NCBI GenBank assembly: GCA_963662335.2
Contig: CAXXVD010000005.1
Location: forward strand, 416,001-480,000
Length of the DNA: 64,000 nucleotides
Origin: Chloroflexota bacterium
Lineage (GTDB): Bacteria; Chloroflexota; UBA11872; VXOZ01
Direction: 5' to 3'
Shown here: positions 48,022 to 62,174 of the stretch, piece after piece
Layout of the letters: the number at the start of each line of letters is the position of its first letter
Position numbering within the stretch: the first letter of the stretch is position 1
Position numbers and translations under genes: made by a program
Notes under the pieces: generated by a model
What the model saw: only the letters and a program-made list of their open reading frames with translations
What the model was told of the DNA's origin: nothing
Database searches by the model: none

Positions 48022-48126
48022 CTGCTTAATGCAATACTCGTACTGGGCCTGCGGGCGCGCGTGCGCCGGCGAGTGAAAGGGGCCCAAACTGCGCCTGGCA
48101 CCTTTGCAAACAGGGAGAAGCGAACC

Positions 48127-49056
48127 ATGGCTCGCCTGGCAAACGTTGCGGTCTGCTCCACGCCAAATACGGTTCTTGGCGAGAGCGACGAAGAGCGTTA
48201 CGAATTCAACCTGAGTAAAGCGGAGGAACTGCTCCACGAGGCCGCCGCGCAAGGGGCGGACATCGCCTGCCTACCCGAGGCGTTTCCCGTGCGCGGCATC
48301 GCATCCGGCGGCACTGACGAACGCTGGTACGAGCCCGTGCCCGGCGGCGAGACCTACCGGCGCATGGCGGCGGTGGCGCGGCAGCGCGGCATGTACGTCG
48401 TGGCGCCCATTCTCGGCATGGAAGACGGCCGGCGCCGCAACGTGGCCATGGTCATCGACCGCAACGGCGAGTACGTCGGCGGCTACAACAAGGTCCATAT
48501 CACGGTCACAGAGGATGAAGCGTGGGGCATCACCCCCGGCGACTCCTGGCCGGTTTTCGACCTGGACTTCGGCAAGATCGGCGTCACCATCTGCTACGAC
48601 GTCTTCTTCCCGGAGGGCTACCGCATCCTCGCACTCAAGGGCGCGGACGTCATCTACCATCCCACCATGTACAGCATGTACGGCGAGGTGGGCTGGGAGG
48701 CCGTCATACAGTCCCGCGCAATCGACAACTGCCTCTACGTCTGTCCGGTGAACTACGGCTTCACCGACCATGAGCCCTGGATGCCGGGCATGTGCCTGAA
48801 TCGCAGCAGCGTGATTGGGCCGGACGGAATCTCCCTGGCCGACCGCGGCCGCTACTGGGGCGTGGCCATGGCCGCGCTCGACCTCGACCGCCCCCGCATG
48901 GTCTACCGGGGCGGCTCGACGGGCCTCGCCAGTTTCCGTGAAGACGCCTGGAACCACCGCCGGCCGGATACCTACCGGGAACTCTTGGACTACGGATATT
49001 GGGTAGACGGTCAGGGCCGGCAGGCGGCTGCGCAACCGGCTGAGGTAGAGGCCTAG
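48127..49056 (+). CDS. Carbon-nitrogen hydrolase (nitrilase family)
   Basis: Glu-Lys-Cys triad: LPEAF, YNKVH, ICYDVFFPE. Confidence 0.93.
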   Translation: MARLANVAVCSTPNTVLGESDEERYEFNLSKAEELLHEAAAQGADIACLPEAFPVRGIASGGTDERWYEPVPGGETYRRMAAVARQRGMYVVAPILGMEDGRRRNVAMVIDRNGEYVGGYNKVHITVTEDEAWGITPGDSWPVFDLDFGKIGVTICYDVFFPEGYRILALKGADVIYHPTMYSMYGEVGWEAVIQSRAIDNCLYVCPVNYGFTDHEPWMPGMCLNRSSVIGPDGISLADRGRYWGVAMAALDLDRPRMVYRGGSTGLASFREDAWNHRRPDTYRELLDYGYWVDGQGRQAAAQPAEVEA

Positions 49057-49448
49057 GTTCCCCGACTCGCCACCAGAACACCTGGGCTCGGTCGATGTAC
49101 TCTTGCCAGCGCGAGAGCGAGCCCCGCTGAAAAGCCGTAGCGCGAGGGCTTCTCCCCAATGGTGTCGCATTAACGTAGCGCGGGGGCTTGTCCACCGCCG
49201 GAGCAATTGAAACTGACACGTAAAGGATTGCCCTAACAGCTTCGCAGGTTACAAACCTGCGCTACCGGGGAATTTGGACGCGAGTTTTGCCGCCGTGCTG
49301 TTTAATGCGACAGCATTAGGGCTTGTCCCCCGCCTCTTAACGAGTGTGGCAAAGACCGTCTAAGGTTATGAGATCCGATCCCTCTTGTCGCGGCGGTTCA
49401 CAGCTGATGCCGCAGATGTAGCAATCTTTCTTGAAAGGAGACAGTCGC

Positions 49449-50117
49449 ATGCTCATCGACACCGACGATTTCGTCACACAGCGCATCGCTGCGGACGAAA
49501 CGCTTGAACCGGAGAAGACCGCACTCATCATCATCGACATGATGAACCGCTTCTGCAATCCGGTGTGGCTGGCGCAGGGCGACCACCAAAGAGCCGAGTG
49601 GTTCGCGCGCGAGCTTGATTGCGTGATACCCAACGTCACCGACGCGCTCCACACGTTTCGCGCGGCCGGCGCGCTTATCGTCCACGCCGTCTGCGCCCGG
49701 TGGACGCTGGACAAACGCGACGCCCCGCTGCACATGCGCGCACGAGACTATGACCTCTTCGATACTCCCGCCATGTCGGTGATCGACCAGTTAGCGCCCC
49801 TGCCCGGCGAAATCCTGATCCGCAAGACAACCGGCTCCGTCTTTACCGGCACGGGCCTGGAATACCTGCTGCGCCAAGCCGGCATCGAAAACGTGGCGCT
49901 CTGCGGCCAGTACGGCAGCGCCTGCGTCTTCTACTCCCTGATACAAAGCCGGGAATTCGGCTTCAAAAAGCGGCTCTGGCTGGAGGACTGCATCCTCTAT
50001 GGCAGTGAAACGAGTAAGCACCTCTTCCCCGCCCTGGTCGGCCAGCATTGGGCCACATTGGCAAACCGGGAAGAGGTAAGCCGCGCGCTCGCGCCGGTCG
50101 CCGCAGCAGCCGGCTAA
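49449..50117 (+). CDS. Isochorismatase / cysteine hydrolase family protein
   Basis: ALIIIDMMN, IRKTTGSVF, CGQYGSACV. Confidence 0.88.
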   Translation: MLIDTDDFVTQRIAADETLEPEKTALIIIDMMNRFCNPVWLAQGDHQRAEWFARELDCVIPNVTDALHTFRAAGALIVHAVCARWTLDKRDAPLHMRARDYDLFDTPAMSVIDQLAPLPGEILIRKTTGSVFTGTGLEYLLRQAGIENVALCGQYGSACVFYSLIQSREFGFKKRLWLEDCILYGSETSKHLFPALVGQHWATLANREEVSRALAPVAAAAG

Positions 50118-52727: not shown

Positions 52728-54110
52728 ATGATACGACTCACCGACGAGCAGATGCGCGACTTCATCCGCAACGGGTACGTCGCGGTCAAGACCGGGCATC
52801 CCCGTGAGTTCCATCAGGATGTCTGGAACCAGACGGAGGCCCTCTTCGAGGAGGACGGCAATCCCGGCAACAACCTGATGGCCAGGATTCCCGCCATCCG
52901 CCAGATCCTCGACGATCCGGCCGTGGACGGCGCGCTGGCCGGCGTGCTGGGCAACAATTACTTCGTTCACCCGCACCGCCACTGCCATTACCGGCCGCCC
53001 CACAGCGAGGGGCAGCAGATACACCGGGATTCCTTCACCCGGCGGCGGCACCGCACCCGCTGGCTCTTGGCGATGTACTATCCCCAAGATACGACGGTCG
53101 AGATGGGCCCCACCGGTGTGCTGCCGGGCACGCACTACTACAACTGGCTGGTAGGCCCGATCGGCTGCAACATGCGGCTGGACACCACCGAGGGCGAGGT
53201 GCCGGTGGTGGTGGAGGCCGGCACGGTATTGATGGTGCACTACGACCTCTGGCACCGGGGCATGGGCAACACCACCGGCAAGAAGCGCTACATGATGAAG
53301 TTCATGTTCGCCCGCATCGAAGAGCCGCGGGAACCGAGTTGGGATAGCCAGGACAGCGCGTGGGCCGACGATGACGAGAGCGCGCTCAACGGCGTCTGGA
53401 GCCACACGTGGCGCTGGTACACGGGCGCGGCCAACAACGGCGCGCCGTCCGCCAACGGCAACGGCTCCATACCGGAGTTGATCGCCAACATCAAGGTGGA
53501 CGACGAGACTACCTGCCTGGCGTCCGCCTACCAATTGGGCTCGCTGGGCGAGGCGGCCATTCCCGCGTTGATCGACACGCTCCAGCACGAAAACGAAGCC
53601 GTGCGCCGCAACGCCAGTTACGCCCTCAGCACTATTGGCGCCGCCGCCGTGCCCGCCTTGCTGGACGCCAGCCGGGACGCAAACGAGGGGACGCGCAGCA
53701 TGGCGGTGGAGACTCTGGCCGACCTCGGCTTTCTCGGCAATGAGGTCATGCCGTATCTCCGCGTGGCGCTGGAGGATGACTCGATCGAGGTGCGCCGCCA
53801 CGTCGTGGACGCGCTCGGCATCTGCCTGCAGCATTCCGACAATGGCGTGCCGGCCCTGATCGATGCGCTTAGCGATGAGGATGAGTTCATGCGGCGCGGC
53901 GCGGCCCTGGCGCTCTCACGCATTGGCGCGCCGGCGGCGGAAGCCACACCCGCCCTGGCCCATGCCCTAAACGACGAGAACCGCTACGTGCGCGGCAAGG
54001 CCGTCCACGCGCTCCAGCGCATCGGCACGCCGGAGGCCCAGGACGCCCTGGTGCACTTCCTGCTGACCTCCCAGTGGTGCTATTCCACCAACAAGGACAG
54101 CCTGTACTAG
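52728..54110 (+). CDS. Phytanoyl-CoA dioxygenase-like (PhyH) domain fused to HEAT/PBS-lyase repeats
   Basis: FIRNGY, IHRD, GPTGVLPGTH, LWHRG; repeated AIPALIDTL...VRR.A..AL. Confidence 0.85.
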   Translation: MIRLTDEQMRDFIRNGYVAVKTGHPREFHQDVWNQTEALFEEDGNPGNNLMARIPAIRQILDDPAVDGALAGVLGNNYFVHPHRHCHYRPPHSEGQQIHRDSFTRRRHRTRWLLAMYYPQDTTVEMGPTGVLPGTHYYNWLVGPIGCNMRLDTTEGEVPVVVEAGTVLMVHYDLWHRGMGNTTGKKRYMMKFMFARIEEPREPSWDSQDSAWADDDESALNGVWSHTWRWYTGAANNGAPSANGNGSIPELIANIKVDDETTCLASAYQLGSLGEAAIPALIDTLQHENEAVRRNASYALSTIGAAAVPALLDASRDANEGTRSMAVETLADLGFLGNEVMPYLRVALEDDSIEVRRHVVDALGICLQHSDNGVPALIDALSDEDEFMRRGAALALSRIGAPAAEATPALAHALNDENRYVRGKAVHALQRIGTPEAQDALVHFLLTSQWCYSTNKDSLY

Positions 54111-54446: not shown

Positions 54447-54881
54447 CTACGAACGGCCGCCCTCCTGCCAGAAGCGCCGTCCGATTAAGAGCGTAAGCAC
54501 CACCAAGAGCGCGTCCACGATGGGAAAATAGATGACGTGGGACGTAACCGCGTCGCCGGTTTCGCTTTCGATGTTGAGGCTCCAGAACCACTCCCAATAG
54601 AAGAGCATCGCCAGGACGATTGAGCCGTAGAAGGCAAGGCTCACGCGCAGATGCTCGATGGTGTTAGAGTCGCCCGCCTCCCGCGCGGCATGGTCGCGCC
54701 GCATCAGTAAACCCTTCACCAGCATGATCAGCGTAGCCAACGCCATGGGGTAATTGAGGACTCTCCATACCGGATAGTCCAGAGACCCGTCGTGGTAGAG
54801 CGGCGTCGCAATCAGGTTGGCCCATGCCAGGAACCCGACGGCCATGAGAAAGACGGCCAAGACCCGATGCGCCAGTGCCAT
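54447..54881 (-). CDS. Hypothetical 4-TM membrane protein
   Basis: AGGAGG RBS; four hydrophobic segments; follows the S8 gene in the same direction. Confidence 0.8.
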   Translation of the reverse strand: MALAHRVLAVFLMAVGFLAWANLIATPLYHDGSLDYPVWRVLNYPMALATLIMLVKGLLMRRDHAAREAGDSNTIEHLRVSLAFYGSIVLAMLFYWEWFWSLNIESETGDAVTSHVIYFPIVDALLVVLTLLIGRRFWQEGGRS

Positions 54882-54929: not shown

Positions 54930-56339
54930 CTAAACGGCCACCCCGCTTGCCAGACGCACTTCGCTCTCCAGGAACAGCGTGCCCTGCTGCCGCTGCCGCG
55001 CGGAGAGTTGGCCCCGCGGATCGCAGACCACCACCAGGCGCTCCGTGCCTTCGGGTATGCGGACGAGCACGTCGCACGCCGCCTGCTCGCGCCCGATCAC
55101 CGTGGGAACCAGCGCGTGGCCGATTTGCACGCCGCCGCCCGCGTCCAACGGCCCATCGAAGACCATCACCGCCACGTCGTGGGCGTCCGCCACGCCCCGG
55201 TTAGCCAGCGTCACCCGCGCGCGTCCAAGTCCCCGGTCTAATTCCGATATTTCAACATCAGCGATCTCCAGGTCGCACTCCACCCGTGCCACGGAGACGG
55301 CGGCGTGAGCGTCGATGAGGCCGTGGCCGAGAAACGGATTCCAGCCCGCGCCGCCCGGCTGATGGGCCGTATTGCGCAGCGCCATGCGCACCTCATCCGC
55401 GGTCAAGCCCGGCTGCCGCGACCACACGAGCGCCGCCAGGCCGGACACGTGTGGTATCGCCATGCAGCCGCCGGACCACTCCGCGTAGCCGCCGTGCTCG
55501 GCTGAAATCGTGCTCAGCACGCCATATTCGGCTTGGGGGTGCTCCCCGAGCGCCGCCGCCATCACGCGCTCCTCCGCCAAAGGCAGGATGCGCCGGGAAG
55601 GATCATTGGCGAGGTCGTAGTCGCGCCAGCCGGACGGCGCCGCCACTTCAGTCAAGTCGCCGTAGTCGCTGAAGTCGGCCATGCGCCCGCTCCTGTCGGC
55701 GGAGGCCACGTTGACCACGCCCGGACAGAGCGCCGGGTACTTGGCCACGTTGTGGGCCTGGTTGCCGCCGGTGGCGTTAACGATTAGCACGTTGTGCCGC
55801 TGGGCATAGCGACACGCCTCCGGCAGGTCTTCCGCATCCGGCGGCGTCCAGGCGCTGTAGAGCGTGGGCAGGCCATGCTTGATGGTGTACATGTAGCCCA
55901 CGTCGCTCAGGTTGATCACCCGCGCGCCCTCGTCCACCGCAAAGCGGATTGCCCGCGCCAGTTCCCGGTCGTCGTAGGTGTTCGCGCGCACCGGCAGGAT
56001 GCGGCACTCCGGCGCGACGCCGGCAATGCCGATGCCGTTGTCCGCCCGCGCCGCAATGATGCCGCAGACGTGCGTGCCGTGGTCGGTGGAGTCCTTGTGC
56101 GTGCGGGGCCGCGACGTGTCGTCGAGCGTATCGTCATCGTCCCACAGGTCCCAGCCCGGCAGAAACTGTCCCGCCAGGTCCGGGTGCCCCACGTCGATGC
56201 CCTTCTCGATGACGGCCACCACCACGTCGGGACTGCCGCGCGTAATCTCCCAGGCCTGGGGCGCATCGATGAGGTGTAGCCCCCACTGCTGTTCAAATAG
56301 GGGGTCATTCACAGGCGTCATGGCGGTATTCCTCTTCAT
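54930..56339 (-). CDS. S8 subtilase-family protein with Glu-His-Cys triad and C-terminal CARDB-like domain
   Basis: NDPLFEQQWGL, VAVIEKGID, HGTHVCGII, GIAGVAP, FSDYG, SGGCMAIPHVSG, GHGLIDA; DL.I...VTLANRG...DP. Confidence 0.9.
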   Translation of the reverse strand: MKRNTAMTPVNDPLFEQQWGLHLIDAPQAWEITRGSPDVVVAVIEKGIDVGHPDLAGQFLPGWDLWDDDDTLDDTSRPRTHKDSTDHGTHVCGIIAARADNGIGIAGVAPECRILPVRANTYDDRELARAIRFAVDEGARVINLSDVGYMYTIKHGLPTLYSAWTPPDAEDLPEACRYAQRHNVLIVNATGGNQAHNVAKYPALCPGVVNVASADRSGRMADFSDYGDLTEVAAPSGWRDYDLANDPSRRILPLAEERVMAAALGEHPQAEYGVLSTISAEHGGYAEWSGGCMAIPHVSGLAALVWSRQPGLTADEVRMALRNTAHQPGGAGWNPFLGHGLIDAHAAVSVARVECDLEIADVEISELDRGLGRARVTLANRGVADAHDVAVMVFDGPLDAGGGVQIGHALVPTVIGREQAACDVLVRIPEGTERLVVVCDPRGQLSARQRQQGTLFLESEVRLASGVAV

Positions 56340-56650: not shown

Positions 56651-58096
56651 ATGCCATTTACTCGTAATCGCATGACGCGACGCCACATGCTGGCGGGTAC
56701 CGGCGGGGTGCTGGGCGCGCTCGCGCTGGCGGCCTGCGGCACGGCCATGCCGACGGGAGACGGCGACGCGCCGGCGGCGGAGGAAGAAGCGGCGCCCAAG
56801 GCCGAAGAACAGAAACCCATGGAGAAGGTCACGGTTTCCGTTAGGTGGATCTCCAACGACCTTACCCTGGTTGAGCCTTTCTACGAGAATCTCGTTGTGG
56901 CGCGATTCTACGAGAACTACGACAACATCGAGCTTGACTGGGTGGGCGACACCTACCGCGACACCATGAGCCAACTCAATACCCAGTTGGCCGCCGGGGA
57001 CGCGCCCGATGTCTTCCACAACGACGGTGTCTTCTTTGCGCGCAACCGCGACGTGGGCTACATTCGCTCGCTGACCGAGTACACCAAGCGCGACGGCGCT
57101 CAGCTTGAGGGCATCCGCGGCCCCGAGTTCTTCAGCGATGAGAAGCAGGACGTGTATGGCGTCTCCATGGGTGTTGGTTGCGCGGCGTTCGCCTACAACA
57201 CCGACATCTTCGACCGCTACGGCATCAACCGATTGCCGGCTGAAGGCATTGATTGGAACCCGGGCGACGGCGGCACGTTGCTGGAAATCGCTTCCGACAT
57301 TACCGCCAAGGGTCAGAACGAAGATCCCAGGATCTGGGGATGGTTCAATAACAAGCAGGCCACGTTCGACATCCTCGGCATGCTGCTCCAAAACGGCACA
57401 AATTTCCTTTCCGATGACTATCGCCGTTCGAGAGCGCACGAGGCAGAGTTCATTGACGTTATCCAGTTCCTGTGGGACTTGGAGTTCAAACATCGGGTCG
57501 CGCCAGATCCCGATGAACGCGCTGAGTTCAACGCTTCGATTCCTGAGGGCACGACGTATCATGGCCCGTTCGCCTGGCAGCGGTCAGCCATGATGAACCT
57601 CGGCCTCGGCCAGTCCGGCTCCTGGGGTTCGCCGGAACCGGAAAAACTGCCCATCGTCGCGGTACAGTACATCCAAGGTCCGGCGAACAACAAGGTGCCG
57701 GGCGGCGGACGCGTGGTCGAGATGTGGGGCAGCACCGAGGTGCCCGACGAGGCCTGGGAAGTCATGAAGTTCCCCTTGGTCGACCATGAGATTCAGGTGG
57801 GGGTCTTCTCTATCCTCCGCGACGGCTTGCCGGCCAACACCAACACGTGGGACGATGCGCGGTTGCTCGAGAAGAGCGGCCGTCCGCCGCGCGAGGTGGA
57901 AGCCTACATGGCCCCGCTCAAGGAAGGCCGCGGCCAGTACTGGCAGGTCAACGGCGTGTGGCTTGAGTGGTGGCGCGCGTTCCGTGGCAACATGAACCGC
58001 GCGTGGGCACTAGAGGTCACCGTCGAGGAAGCCATGCAGCAAGCAAGCAAAGAGTCTCAGGCTGTGCTGGACGAGTACTACGCCAGCCAGGACTAA
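56651..58096 (+). CDS. Extracellular solute-binding lipoprotein, Tat signal
   Basis: TRRHML...LAAC, AAGDAPDVF, AYNTDIF; TTGACG-16-TACACT promoter near 56459. Confidence 0.9.
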   Translation: MPFTRNRMTRRHMLAGTGGVLGALALAACGTAMPTGDGDAPAAEEEAAPKAEEQKPMEKVTVSVRWISNDLTLVEPFYENLVVARFYENYDNIELDWVGDTYRDTMSQLNTQLAAGDAPDVFHNDGVFFARNRDVGYIRSLTEYTKRDGAQLEGIRGPEFFSDEKQDVYGVSMGVGCAAFAYNTDIFDRYGINRLPAEGIDWNPGDGGTLLEIASDITAKGQNEDPRIWGWFNNKQATFDILGMLLQNGTNFLSDDYRRSRAHEAEFIDVIQFLWDLEFKHRVAPDPDERAEFNASIPEGTTYHGPFAWQRSAMMNLGLGQSGSWGSPEPEKLPIVAVQYIQGPANNKVPGGGRVVEMWGSTEVPDEAWEVMKFPLVDHEIQVGVFSILRDGLPANTNTWDDARLLEKSGRPPREVEAYMAPLKEGRGQYWQVNGVWLEWWRAFRGNMNRAWALEVTVEEAMQQASKESQAVLDEYYASQD

Positions 58097-58374: not shown

Positions 58375-59088
58375 GTGACGCCAATCCTTACCGCCCTGAT
58401 CGCCCTTGGCGCCGGCGTCGCCTCATTTCTCTCGCCCTGCGTCCTGCCGCTGGTGCCGGCCTACGTCGGCCACCTGGCGGGCACAAGCGTATCCGAAGAG
58501 CGGGACACCCAGGCGACGCTGCGCACGGTGGCCCACGCCGCCTGCTTCGTGCTGGGGTTTTCCGCCGTCTTCGTGCTGCTGTGGACGTCCGTCGGCCTGG
58601 TCGGCTATGCGATACAGGGGTACACCTTCTACCTGCGCTACGTTGGCGGCGTCATCCTCGTCATCCTGGGCCTCCACGTTGCCGGCATTCTGCGGCTGCG
58701 CTGGCTGAACCAGGAGCGGCGCATCTACGTCGATCGCGGCCGCCCGCGCAACTTCCTCACCTCGTGGCTCGTGGGCGTCACCTTTGCCGCCGGCTGGACG
58801 CCCTGCATCGGGCCCATCTTGGGCGGCATCATCGCGCTTGCCGGGACGCGCGAGACCTTAGGCGAGGGCTCGCTGCTCCTGGCGCTCTACTCGGCCGGCC
58901 TCGGCATCCCGTTCTTGCTCACGGCAATCGGCCTGTCGCGCGCGGTCCCACTCCTGCGCTGGCTAAACCGCCACGCCCACACGGTCGAGGTGGCCAGCGG
59001 CGGCCTGCTCATCGTCATCGGCGTGATGATGTTCATGAATACCTTCGCCCAACTGGCGCGCTACTTCACCTGGATTCCGGTCTTCTAG
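58375..59088 (+). CDS. ccdA: Cytochrome c biogenesis protein CcdA
   Basis: SFLSPCVLPLVPAY, GWTPCIGPILG, YSAGLGIPF. Confidence 0.93.
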   Translation: MTPILTALIALGAGVASFLSPCVLPLVPAYVGHLAGTSVSEERDTQATLRTVAHAACFVLGFSAVFVLLWTSVGLVGYAIQGYTFYLRYVGGVILVILGLHVAGILRLRWLNQERRIYVDRGRPRNFLTSWLVGVTFAAGWTPCIGPILGGIIALAGTRETLGEGSLLLALYSAGLGIPFLLTAIGLSRAVPLLRWLNRHAHTVEVASGGLLIVIGVMMFMNTFAQLARYFTWIPVF

Positions 59089-59390: not shown

Positions 59391-62174
59391 TCACGGCACG
59401 CGATACACCTCCGCCGCCGGCTTCACCGGACGCGGCATCCACAGCGGCCGCCGCAGCGCATCGGAACCCTCAGCCGGCCGCGCCTTCTTCAGCCACTCCA
59501 AATAGACCTCGTGGGATTTGCCGGTATCCACGAACACGTCCCCGTATTGGTCGTCGGCGCCCGCCGTCTCCACCCGCACTTTCTGGTGCCAGCAGTGCAT
59601 GCCGCTCACCGGGTCCGGGTGCACCGGAAACGTCAGGTTCTGGTGCACGCCCGATTCCTTCCACCAGATGCGCTCGGAGTCCGGGTCGTCGCTTTTGAAC
59701 GGCCCCACGCCCTCGACTTGACGCATGAACCACTGCCCCGCGCCAACACTCTTCAGGTCCACGTGCGCCGTAGACCAGCGCTCGCCGCCGCTCTCCTTGG
59801 AGAGCCGCCAGCGCCCCAGGTGGTGCGAACAGGCCACGATACCGGGCCGGATGCCCTCGGTGACCCACACGCGAATGACGAAGTAGCCGATTTCGGTATT
59901 CACGCGTGCCAGGTCGCCGGTCGCGAACGCCAGCCGTTCCGCGTCCTGCGGATGCACCCACAGCGGATTGGTGTGCGAAATCTCGTAGAGCCACTTGGCG
60001 TTGCCGGCCCGCGTGTGGATGAGCGTCGGCAGGCGGAACGTGGGCAGCAGCACGTACTCGCCCTGGCTGTGGTCGATGTTCTCCCGGTGCACGTGGCTCT
60101 TGATGTACGTTGGCACGGCGTATTCCGGCCACTTGAAGTCCCGCAGCGTATCGGAAAAGAACTCCAGCTTGCGCGAGGGCGTATGAAAGCCTTCAACCGC
60201 CGTGCCGTCCACTTCCACGCCCAGCACCTCGCCGTTCTTCCGCACCTGCTGGGTCACCGGGTCGACCTCAGCGCCCTCAAGGTCCTCGTCTGACAGCGGG
60301 TTTTCATGCACCGCGTAGGTATCGCGCTTCACCTCGAACGCGCCGTACTTGCGCATGTACGCCAGCGGCGTTAGCTCCTCAGCGGCCGCCGCTTCCGGCA
60401 GACCGGGCACGCTATTCTCGAAGATCCATTGGTAGTATTCGCTGATGGTCAGCTTCTCACCGGGGCGGTAGGGTGATTCGAAGAACTCGCGCACGCCCAG
60501 GCTGCCGTCCGGGTCGATGCGCCACGAAAGCTCGATCCAGAATTCGTCCTCTTCCCAGACCTCGCCGGGATTCGCTTCGTAGGTAAACTCGACGGCATCG
60601 CCGTTCTTCTCGCGCGCCACCCGCAGCACCGGCTGCCGGAAGGCGATCCACGCGCCCGCCTGGGTCTCCTGGCTCATGAGGTCGTGGCGCTCCGCGCCGT
60701 TGCCCATGGGCAGCACGTAGTCCGCGAACCACGCCGTCTCGCTCCACACCGGCGTCAGCGCGGCGTGCACGCCGATTTGCTCTTCGTCGCTCAGCATCTC
60801 GATCCACGACGCGCCGTCGGGATTCGTCCACACCGGGTTGTAGACGCGGGTGAAGTAGGTGTCCACCTTGCCGCGCCCCTCTTTGAGGAAGTGCGGCAGC
60901 AGAATGCTCATCTCGTGGTGCGCCAGGGGGTACTCCCGCGGCCACAGAAGCTCGCTCCACACCTGCTGCGGCGGCGGTTTGATATAGGGCGCGGGGGCGA
61001 ATTTGTTCCAACTGTTGGGGGAGGTGCCGCCGCGCGTGCCGATGCTGCCGGTCAACACGCCGAGAAACGTCAGGCAGCGCGAGACCTGCCAGCCGCCTTC
61101 ATTGCCGGAGGCCGCGCTGCGCCACACGTGGCTGGCAAAGGCCGTGCCCGCCGCGGCAATGTCGCGCGCCACCGCGACGATCTGGCCGGCGTCCACGCCG
61201 CTCTCTTGCGCCGCGAACTCCGGTGTGTAAGAGGCGTAGAATTCCTTGATAGCGGCGATGAAGTTGTCGAACGTCGCATCCGTGCCGGGATGCTCGGCGC
61301 GCATGTACTGCTGCCAGTTCAGCCACTTCTCCATGAAGTCCCGGTTGTAGCGGTCTTCCTGCAAGATGACGTTCGCCATGGCCAGCAGGATCGCCGGTTC
61401 CGAACCCGGCCAGGACGAGAGCCAGTAGTCCGCGCGCGAGGCCGTATTGGAAAGCCGGGTGTCGATGACGGCGATCTTCGCGCCGGAGAGTTTGCCCTCG
61501 ATGATGCGCTGGGCGTGGGGATTGAAGTAGTGTCCGGTCTCCAGGTGGGCGCTGATCAGCAGCATGAAGCGGGAGTTGGCGTGGTCGGGCGAGGGCCGGT
61601 CCGCGCCCTGCCAGAGCGTGTACCCCAAGCGCGCGGCGGAGGAACAGACGTTCGTATGGCTGTTGTGGCCGTCCACGCCCCAGGCCTGGAGCACCCGGTC
61701 CATATAGCCGTCGTGGCCGGGACGCCCCACGTGGTACATCACCTCCGTGCGGCGGTCTTCCTGCAAGGCCGTGCGAATGCGCGCCGCCAACGTATCGAGC
61801 ACCTCGTCCCAGGTGGTGCGTTCCCACGCGCCCGACCCGCGCGGCCCGCTGCGCTTCATGGGGTAGAGGATGCGCTCCGGGTCGTGCACCTGGTTGATGG
61901 TCGCCGGGCCTTTGGCGCAGTTGCGGCCGCGGCTGCCGGGATGCGCCGGGTTGCCCTCGAACTTGCGAATGCGCATGTCCTCTTTGTCAATATACGCCAG
62001 CAGCCCGCACGCCGCCTCGCAATTGAAGCAGACCGTCGGCACCAACATGTAGTTCTTGGAGACGCGCCGCGGCCAAGCTTCCGGATCGTACTCGGTCCAG
62101 TCGTCCCACTGGTCTACCGGCGGGTAGTTCGCCAGTTGGCCCGATTCCGGAAACTGTGGCTTGAAGATCGACAT
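59391..62174 (-). CDS. Molybdopterin (bis-MGD) oxidoreductase catalytic subunit, no Tat signal
   Basis: CFNCEAAC...GRNCAKG FS0 cluster, RILYPMKR, HTNVCS, ETAWFADYVLP, HPQDAERL. Confidence 0.93.
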   Translation of the reverse strand: MSIFKPQFPESGQLANYPPVDQWDDWTEYDPEAWPRRVSKNYMLVPTVCFNCEAACGLLAYIDKEDMRIRKFEGNPAHPGSRGRNCAKGPATINQVHDPERILYPMKRSGPRGSGAWERTTWDEVLDTLAARIRTALQEDRRTEVMYHVGRPGHDGYMDRVLQAWGVDGHNSHTNVCSSAARLGYTLWQGADRPSPDHANSRFMLLISAHLETGHYFNPHAQRIIEGKLSGAKIAVIDTRLSNTASRADYWLSSWPGSEPAILLAMANVILQEDRYNRDFMEKWLNWQQYMRAEHPGTDATFDNFIAAIKEFYASYTPEFAAQESGVDAGQIVAVARDIAAAGTAFASHVWRSAASGNEGGWQVSRCLTFLGVLTGSIGTRGGTSPNSWNKFAPAPYIKPPPQQVWSELLWPREYPLAHHEMSILLPHFLKEGRGKVDTYFTRVYNPVWTNPDGASWIEMLSDEEQIGVHAALTPVWSETAWFADYVLPMGNGAERHDLMSQETQAGAWIAFRQPVLRVAREKNGDAVEFTYEANPGEVWEEDEFWIELSWRIDPDGSLGVREFFESPYRPGEKLTISEYYQWIFENSVPGLPEAAAAEELTPLAYMRKYGAFEVKRDTYAVHENPLSDEDLEGAEVDPVTQQVRKNGEVLGVEVDGTAVEGFHTPSRKLEFFSDTLRDFKWPEYAVPTYIKSHVHRENIDHSQGEYVLLPTFRLPTLIHTRAGNAKWLYEISHTNPLWVHPQDAERLAFATGDLARVNTEIGYFVIRVWVTEGIRPGIVACSHHLGRWRLSKESGGERWSTAHVDLKSVGAGQWFMRQVEGVGPFKSDDPDSERIWWKESGVHQNLTFPVHPDPVSGMHCWHQKVRVETAGADDQYGDVFVDTGKSHEVYLEWLKKARPAEGSDALRRPLWMPRPVKPAAEVYRVP

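Follow-up and report, generated by a model that had tools for sequence, protein, structure and literature searches.

Does the subtilisin fold occur in nature with a cysteine in the place of its catalytic serine? Subtilisin is a standard example of a serine protease, and a Ser-to-Cys variant of it has existed since the 1960s as a product of the laboratory. The question is raised by a gene on a 64,000-nucleotide stretch of DNA from a Chloroflexota bacterium (assembly GCA_963662335.2, contig CAXXVD010000005.1, positions 416,001 to 480,000 of the forward strand; the window in the following), whose product, here termed the window subtilase, had been described in a first-pass annotation made from the DNA letters alone as a candidate natural thiol-subtilisin with a Glu-His-Cys triad. 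The analysis reported here confirms that this Glu-His-Cys state is a conserved and selected active site and neither decay nor a read error, and it leads to a graded view of what the encoded protein may do in the cell.

By sequence, the best solved relative of the window subtilase is thermitase (1tec, E 2e-37), and the HMMER alignment of the two proteins assigns each catalytic position. The thermitase motif IAIVDTG pairs with VAVIEKG, which places Glu at the position of Asp32 in subtilisin, while GHGTH pairs with DHGTH and His64 is kept. Likewise, -AAAGNA pairs with NATGGNQ, by which Asn155 of the oxyanion hole is kept next to one extra residue, and SGTSMATPHV pairs with SGGCMAIPHV, by which Ser221 is replaced by Cys and Thr220 by Gly. 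The motif readings and codon positions given for Glu, His and Cys in the first-pass annotation are exact (Table 1). With respect to classification, the product matches the Pfam model PF00082 with an E value of 8.3e-45 and 153.7 bits against a cut-off of 21.8, which makes it a member of Peptidase S8, and the oxyanion-hole Asn of this family is present as Asn193, both aligned and invariant in a 14-sequence alignment (A3) in which His87 and Cys292 do not vary either. The Asp-His-Ser triad of MEROPS catalytic type S is replaced by Glu45-His87-Cys292, with the order and the His retained; since this defining triad is lacking, the window protein is not a serine-type S8 peptidase in the strict sense.

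Table 1. Coordinates of the window subtilase gene, its active-site codons and domains, and of related or neighbouring genes (window positions unless a genome or locus is named).
Feature	Position	Strand	Remarks
Cys-subtilase open reading frame (ORF)	54930-56339	(-)	469 residues as listed; intact; stop codon 54930-54932
Probable true coding sequence	54930-56321	(-)	463 residues from Met7; 13 orthologue starts and AAGAGGA
Shine-Dalgarno-like AAGAGGA	56330-56336	(-)	8 nucleotides 5' of the Met7 ATG (56319-56321); presumed role in ribosome binding
Peptidase_S8 catalytic domain, residues 38-340	55320-56228	(-)	Pfam PF00082, AlphaFold2 model, Foldseek
C-terminal immunoglobulin-like (Ig-like; CARDB-like) beta-sandwich, residues 352-469	54933-55286	(-)	Model and structure matches
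Glu45, GAG, subtilisin Asp32 position	56205-56207	(-)	GAG or GAA in 14/14 orthologues
His87, CAC, His64 equivalent	56079-56081	(-)	Invariant in alignments A2 and A3
Asn193, AAC, oxyanion-hole Asn155 equivalent, in ATGGNQ	55761-55763	(-)	Invariant in A3; AAC or AAT in 14/14 orthologues
Gly291-Cys292, GGC TGC, Thr220 and Ser221 positions	55464-55469	(-)	Cys codon (55464-55466) TGC in 14/14 orthologues
Pro296, CCA, subtilisin Pro225 position	55452-55454	(-)	Pro in window protein; Gly or Ala in many relatives
Second Cys-subtilase, same genome, outside the window	G000:C1:467926-469263 = L129:8927-10264	(-)	446 residues
Prolidase-like M24 genes (Creatinase_N and Peptidase_M24)	L127:11046-12170, L129:10498-11679, L135:6874-7980, L136:9219-10352		54-63% mutual identity
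Four-transmembrane (4-TM) ORF	54447-54881	(-)	144 residues; real gene, four-helix membrane protein
SBP_bac_1 solute-binding protein, divergent	56651-58096	(+)	Pfam; possible functional neighbour
PhyH-type dioxygenase domain (residues 52-187) fused to HEAT repeats	52728-54110	(+)	460 residues
DsbD/CcdA-type membrane protein	58375-59088	(+)	
Molybdopterin oxidoreductase with Fe4S4 domain	59391-62174	(-)	927 residues
CN_hydrolase	48061-49056	(+)	
Isochorismatase-family hydrolase	49431-50117	(+)	

The constancy of this active site was assessed over a broad range of relatives. A word-indexed search of 5.8 billion proteins returned a sharply bounded set of full-length relatives, P0002-P0032, which range from 94% to 35% identity to the window subtilase with 96-99% coverage for the complete ones, and beyond which ordinary subtilases follow with a coverage of about 73%. 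Three more proteins, P0125, P0127 and P0132, came from an exhaustive HMMER search through 1.84 billion representatives. When the 265 proteins retrieved were aligned to the window subtilase with HMMER and the sites were counted per aligned row, the nucleophile column held Cys in 34 rows, Ser in 252 and another residue in 7, and all 34 Cys rows come from P0001-P0032, P0125 and P0127. Glu-His-Asn-Cys is present in each of the 30 full-length clade proteins that cover the four sites (94% to about 39% identity), a count made up of 29 such rows and P0029, whose match was split in two, and the next relatives after this Glu clade, P0032 and P0127, carry Asp-His-Asn-Cys. The residue before the nucleophile follows the same division, being Gly in 32 of the 34 Cys rows versus none of the 252 Ser rows, 242 of which have Thr.

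At closer range, orthologues of 81-83% identity with the same active-site residues reside in 12 Chloroflexota assemblies, and these residues recur in the orthologue of genome G398 at 59.5% identity. Over 78 within-genus pairs, the median non-synonymous (dN) and synonymous (dS) substitution rates amount to 0.10 and 1.1, with a median dN/dS of 0.081 (range 0.053-0.159), a ratio that is rough because dS is near saturation, though unambiguous in direction; within the genus, the Glu and Asn codons differ by synonymous changes only. Contigs from public sequencing runs of two studies show a single state at the Glu and Cys codons together with many differences elsewhere, the Cys codon being covered by X1 and X3 and the Glu codon by X1 and X4. 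An ordinary serine subtilase that merely appears altered, by sequencing or assembly error or by two chance substitutions in a decaying gene, is thereby refuted as an explanation: the same codons stand in the 12 other assemblies and in G398 as well as in the run contigs, the frame is intact at a dN/dS of 0.08, and the state is common to proteins down to about 39% identity, whereas nothing was found in favour of an artefact, the probability of which is negligible. Hence, the earlier view of the two triad swaps and the Thr-to-Gly change as a kept active site rather than decay holds, the envisaged clade of homologues under purifying selection exists, and the run contigs give no other letter at either codon.

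The gene itself required one small correction. In 13 orthologues the N-terminus reads M-x-x-V/L-N-D-P, and since the corresponding ATG of the window gene is preceded at a distance of 8 nucleotides by AAGAGGA, Met7 is probably the true start, which would give a protein of 463 residues instead of the listed ORF product. Apart from this shift, the alignment agrees with the annotated intact ORF and its thermitase-like mature N-terminus, residue 11 of the window subtilase pairing with residue 4 of thermitase. The frame is open for 485 codons only and therefore leaves no space for a signal peptide or a propeptide; neither was seen in the window protein or in any clade member, and the relatives begin alike, in keeping with what had been annotated. 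The window subtilase is thus devoid of the signal peptide and of the N-terminal propeptide serving as intramolecular chaperone that characterize secreted S8A proteases.

An AlphaFold2 model built from a 60-sequence alignment reached a predicted local distance difference test score (pLDDT) of 92.4 and a predicted template-modelling score (pTM) of 0.93, and its top Foldseek matches are thermitase (1tec/1thm) and subtilisins, with probability 1.00 and a template-modelling score (TM-score) on the target of 0.89-0.90. The catalytic domain is followed by a seven-strand beta-sandwich at residues 352-469 (model pLDDT 87.6), for which VIA-align gave 2l0d as the best structure match (Z 10.6, root-mean-square deviation 2.7, 106 residues aligned), next to Ig-like domains of glycoside hydrolase family 2 at Z of about 10 and the CARDB domain 3idu at Z 8.6, the latter being one among many Ig-like domains at Z 8-10. 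Atlas CARDB clusters scored 0.85 against this domain, which is a lead only and consistent with the 3idu match, and no Pfam model, PF07705 included, matched it even at E 10. In the catalytic domain, Arg239 (55623-55625), located in a family-specific insertion just after AAPxG, is invariant in a 14-sequence alignment of the Glu-type proteins with P0032 and P0127; it is not retained in the G398 paralogue and could be a substrate-binding residue.

Judged by sequence comparison, the window gene belongs, as one branch, to a natural group of Cys-subtilases that is much larger. A second Cys-subtilase is encoded in the same genome outside the window (Table 1), which carries Asp-His-Asn-Cys, Ala at the position of Pro225 and a C-terminal domain, and is without signal peptide. 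The family of this paralogue comprises at least 120 relatives, with 48-85% identity among the matches listed, and spans several phyla according to its source-named records, among them Armatimonadetes, Verrucomicrobiota, Kiritimatiellae, Isosphaeraceae, Anaerolineae and 'Candidatus Pacebacteria'. In its 121 aligned rows, the Cys nucleophile, the Gly before it and the oxyanion Asn are present in all 121, and the Asp and the His in 119 each.

The residue at position 225 deserves attention in this context because of what is known from engineered enzymes. According to passages of PMC7921005, S221C thiol-subtilisin is hampered by crowding around the larger sulphur, P225A restores activity to yield subtiligase, both activity and the ratio of synthesis to hydrolysis benefit from a small residue such as Gly at 225, and the peptide ligases known as subtiligase, peptiligase and omniligase are all founded on thiol-subtilisin. 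Among the 121 rows of the paralogue's family, position 225 is occupied by Gly in 106, Ala in 11, Ser in 3, Glu in 1 and Pro in none, and in the 34 Cys rows of the window's clade by Pro in 21, Gly in 8 and Ala in 5, versus Pro in 240 of the 252 Ser rows. Many natural relatives thus carry a small residue at the very site that engineers picked, as far as the passages of PMC7921005 describe it. The Cys221 in a subtilisin fold is common to the engineered S221C and S221C/P225A enzymes and to the window protein, but the latter is natural, conserved and cytoplasmic, has Gly for Thr220 and, as in its whole clade, Glu for Asp32, and keeps Pro225. Its site therefore corresponds to the subtiligase type, an engineered reference and not a natural family, at 221 but not at 225.

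A quick maximum-likelihood tree of 45 rows, including 13 ordinary subtilases, unites all Cys-type proteins and P0132 in one clade apart from the ordinary subtilases, with a support of 99 in the Shimodaira-Hasegawa-like approximate likelihood-ratio test (SH-aLRT), and the Glu-type proteins form one clade (98) inside it. On this tree there is one change of the acid and there are two of the nucleophile, the latter being either a gain and a reversal in P0132 or two gains; as the deeper forks are supported only by 82-90, the order of events is not settled. P0132 (419 residues) has the same architecture without signal peptide, carries Asp-His-Asn-Ser (SGQSAAAPHA) and is the nearest such relative that keeps Ser, so within the Cys clade it would have either reverted to Ser or preserved the ancestral state. 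An additional form is encoded on the metagenome contig L019:594-4220 (+), where an ORF product of more than 1208 residues combines Asp-His-Asn-Cys (SGGCMATPHV) with a signal-peptide-like N-terminus. Cytoplasmic forms are therefore not the only ones with the Cys state, and the L019 protein may be an exported multidomain Cys-type form; about 700 further residues follow its S8 domain. Neither Cys nor Glu occurs at the sites concerned in any of 40 longer (fused) proteins of 822-2345 residues.

As to the distribution in genomes, 401 Chloroflexota and 401 Planctomycetota genomes were surveyed, both sets being samples only. In the former, the Glu-type gene is present in all 12 genomes that belong to the genus of the window, its own included, and in G398 of another family, and the Asp-type paralogue occurs in the same 13 genomes only. 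In the sampled Planctomycetota, no member of the Glu-type clade was found at 1e-60, bar one match in a 1364-residue frame of which the triad was not read, and a search for the paralogue's family at 1e-70 likewise gave nothing; the Glu-type protein P0029 is named Phycisphaeraceae by its source. A metagenome scan returned 80 loci with Cys only in L017 (1.7 kb) and L019, the others being ordinary Asp-His-Ser subtilases, and a scan of genome contigs gave only the 12 close relatives and one ordinary S8 protein. The plasmid collection gave no match, and no RNA run is among the public runs listed as holding the gene. One run labelled sponge metagenome shares 0.06 of the words, from which no claim on habitat is drawn.

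Information on the possible role of the window subtilase comes from its gene neighbourhood, all of it from two related Chloroflexota genera, so that these data are a lead and not a demonstration. The solute-binding protein gene of the SBP_bac_1 family that is transcribed divergently from the subtilase gene is syntenic in 12 of 12 close relatives, which in addition carry a second paralogue (57-59% identity) on the other side of the subtilase gene. Such synteny in close relatives could by itself be the outcome of shared descent. In G238, a third Cys-subtilase paralogue has an SBP_bac_1 gene directly upstream, the product of which is 48% identical to the binding protein of the window, and directly downstream an M24 gene that shares 63% identity with the other M24 of G238. 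The first-pass annotation had proposed that the subtilase works with the divergently encoded binding protein; this is partly supported, by the arrangement in G238.

The prolidase-like M24 metallopeptidase recurs more widely. In G398, the Glu-type gene lies 64 nucleotides downstream of an M24 gene, whose only homologue in the window's genome (54% identity) stands directly upstream of the Asp-type paralogue. Hence, M24 adjoins three different Cys-subtilase genes in two gene orders, directly upstream in three loci and directly downstream in one, while SBP_bac_1 adjoins two. The nearest solved relatives of the M24 protein are proline dipeptidases (3q6d, E 2.7e-10), and the aligned residues of the D, D, H and HE motifs, which we take to be metal ligands, are kept. 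Other recurrent neighbours are hydrolases and oxygenases, namely CN_hydrolase, Amidohydro_2, polysaccharide deacetylase, DUF3604, PhyH and isochorismatase. The region around the window subtilase is itself rich in hydrolases, and a stand-alone PhyH gene adjoins the Cys-subtilase paralogue of G398.

The downstream 4-TM protein, likewise put forward as a partner, was rejected as such. Its product matches no Pfam or NCBIfam model, and orthologues exist at 71-74% identity in four of four same-genus genomes and at 53% in G398, where the gene is found 0.3-0.9 Mb from the subtilase gene in all five other genomes checked; tblastn detected a copy beside the subtilase gene in none of 12 related loci. Because the gene is elsewhere in the relatives, the proposed partnership is not supported. 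In the window it stands where 12 relatives have the second binding-protein gene.

Among known systems, thermitase and the subtilisins of S8A (1tec, 1thm, 1dbi) are closest to the window protein, with the same fold and catalytic order, His64 and Asn155 kept and the mature N-terminus matched. In comparison with them, the window protein features Cys for Ser, Glu for Asp and Gly for Thr220, lacks signal peptide and propeptide, has a loop at 96-111 that is four residues shorter as well as two insertions, and gains a C-terminal Ig-like domain. The intracellular subtilisin proteases (ISPs; 2x8j, 2wv7, 7xr8; E of about 1e-23) are also S8 proteins without signal peptide or classical propeptide, but they are listed as serine-type in the Protein Data Bank, are devoid of the Ig-like domain and are farther from the window protein than thermitase. 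ISPs carry a short inhibitory N-terminal extension. Of the NCBIfam models, none reaches its cut-off on the window subtilase; the type VII secretion mycosin model TIGR03921, for instance, scores 213.2 bits against 278.75. The double swap to a Cys nucleophile and a Glu acid has a counterpart in picornain 3C, as the poliovirus 3C protease combines a chymotrypsin-like fold with His40-Glu71-Cys147 (passages of PMC8001691). However, this viral polyprotein enzyme belongs to an unrelated fold and clan, and the likeness is a mechanistic analogy within a serine-protease fold without homology.

On balance, we consider it probable that the window subtilase is an active cytoplasmic hydrolase of the S8 fold, which would operate through an acyl-enzyme by means of Cys292-His87-Glu45 and an oxyanion hole formed with Asn193, and would act on an imported peptide- or amide-containing compound. 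Its residues, conservation, selection, fold and recurring neighbours are observed; catalytic competence, chemistry and substrate are what we infer. In the proposed mechanism, His87 would be oriented by Glu45, and Cys292 would be deprotonated by, or ion-paired with, His87. The resulting thiolate would attack an amide or ester carbonyl to yield a thioester acyl-enzyme, which would be resolved by water or possibly by an amine. Space for the larger sulphur would be provided by Gly291 and, in many relatives, by Gly or Ala at the position of Pro225. The neighbouring genes suggest a role in the cytoplasmic breakdown of an imported compound, jointly with a binding-protein-dependent importer and, at the paralogous loci, with the M24 metallopeptidase.

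Several observations weigh against this reading. The activity of engineered thiol-subtilisin is drastically reduced according to passages of PMC7921005, hence a Cys swap alone is no guarantee of a good amidase, and the window protein retains Pro at the 225 site. The loop that holds the substrate strand (residues 116-131; about 96-111 in subtilisin) comprises 16 residues in the clade versus a median of 20 elsewhere, a length as short as that of the clade being seen in 22 of 258 other S8 rows. Moreover, the cleft region is flanked in sequence by two insertions, one of 16 residues after the N-L-S (SLG) strand (37 versus 21 residues) and another before the nucleophile helix (56 versus 42 residues, with only 27 comparison rows). 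The shortened loop and the two insertions imply that canonical binding of an extended peptide may be altered. With regard to context, the narrow base of two genera adds to the fact that the nearest solved relatives of the binding protein (6rjy, E 1.1e-11) bind oligosaccharides and not peptides, and that the gene order of the window is lost at about 60% identity (G398, 59.5%). Finally, a protein that binds without catalysing could show the same purifying selection and the same invariant residues.

This last point leads to a different interpretation, by which the protein would be an inactive pseudo-protease whose fold is kept to bind, to regulate or to act as a scaffold. Known S8 pseudoproteases whose triad is altered include CspA and CspC of Clostridioides difficile (PMC7200643), which share the S8 fold and a non-canonical triad with the window protein; the weakness of S221C subtilisin and the shortened substrate-strand loop would be in line with such a function, and a low dN/dS cannot separate binding from catalysis. 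Unlike in the Csp proteins, however, every catalytic position of the window protein is chemically competent and conserved across the family, the four positions varying little or not at all along branches as long as about one change per site. In addition, the Gly before the Cys and the small residue at 225 match the relief of crowding in active engineered enzymes, and it is not obvious why a pseudoenzyme should require His, Asn and acid together, all of which makes loss of activity an unlikely explanation. Slightly less likely still is a natural peptide ligase, transpeptidase or cyclase, in effect nature's own subtiligase, in which the same Cys-His-Glu thioester chemistry would serve physiological acyl transfer. 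In passages of PMC7921005, the thioester acyl-enzyme of S221C is described as more readily cleaved by amines, with P225A or small 225 residues raising the synthesis-to-hydrolysis ratio, and a small residue stands at 225 in 120 of the 121 rows of the paralogue's family (Gly, Ala or Ser) and in 13 of the 34 rows of the window's clade (Gly or Ala). A cysteine-dependent peptide cyclase is also described in another fold, the thioesterase MacB-TE (PMC13288461). On the other hand, the Pro at 225 of the window protein speaks against acyl transfer, no genes for ribosomally synthesized and post-translationally modified peptides (RiPPs), for nonribosomal peptide synthetases (NRPSs) or for precursor peptides were seen near any copy examined, and the genes alongside code for hydrolases and for import (M24, CN_hydrolase, Amidohydro_2, polysaccharide deacetylase, SBP_bac_1). 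The model of the PatA/PatG cyanobactin proteases, TIGR03895, covers residues 87-228 only and scores 60.6 bits against a cut-off of 421.05.

While the S8 fold itself is known, the aligned sequences point to a natural change of its catalytic type as the new element. The literature search yielded no report of a natural S8 protein with a Cys nucleophile but only engineered thiol-subtilisins, a result that is no proof of absence as most subscription journals and supplements were outside its scope. Source annotations read 'S8 family serine peptidase' or 'hypothetical', and the former label names the wrong nucleophile. A natural and selected Cys family would demonstrate that nature has made the step from serine to cysteine catalysis in clan SB as it has in the chymotrypsin clan, and the changes that go with it, namely a Gly in front of the nucleophile, a Gly or Ala at 225 and Glu for Asp, would amount to a natural experiment on how a thiol functions in this scaffold. 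If the ligase interpretation were true, amide bonds would be made or remodelled in the cytoplasm via a thioester acyl-enzyme, and evolution would have reached S221C together with a small residue at 225, plus Asp32Glu in the window's clade. In that case, the Asp-His-Cys family of several phyla and the rarer Glu-His-Cys clade would add a new catalytic type to clan SB and be a ready source of ligation biocatalysts. Cys-subtilases could be starting points for ligation catalysts.

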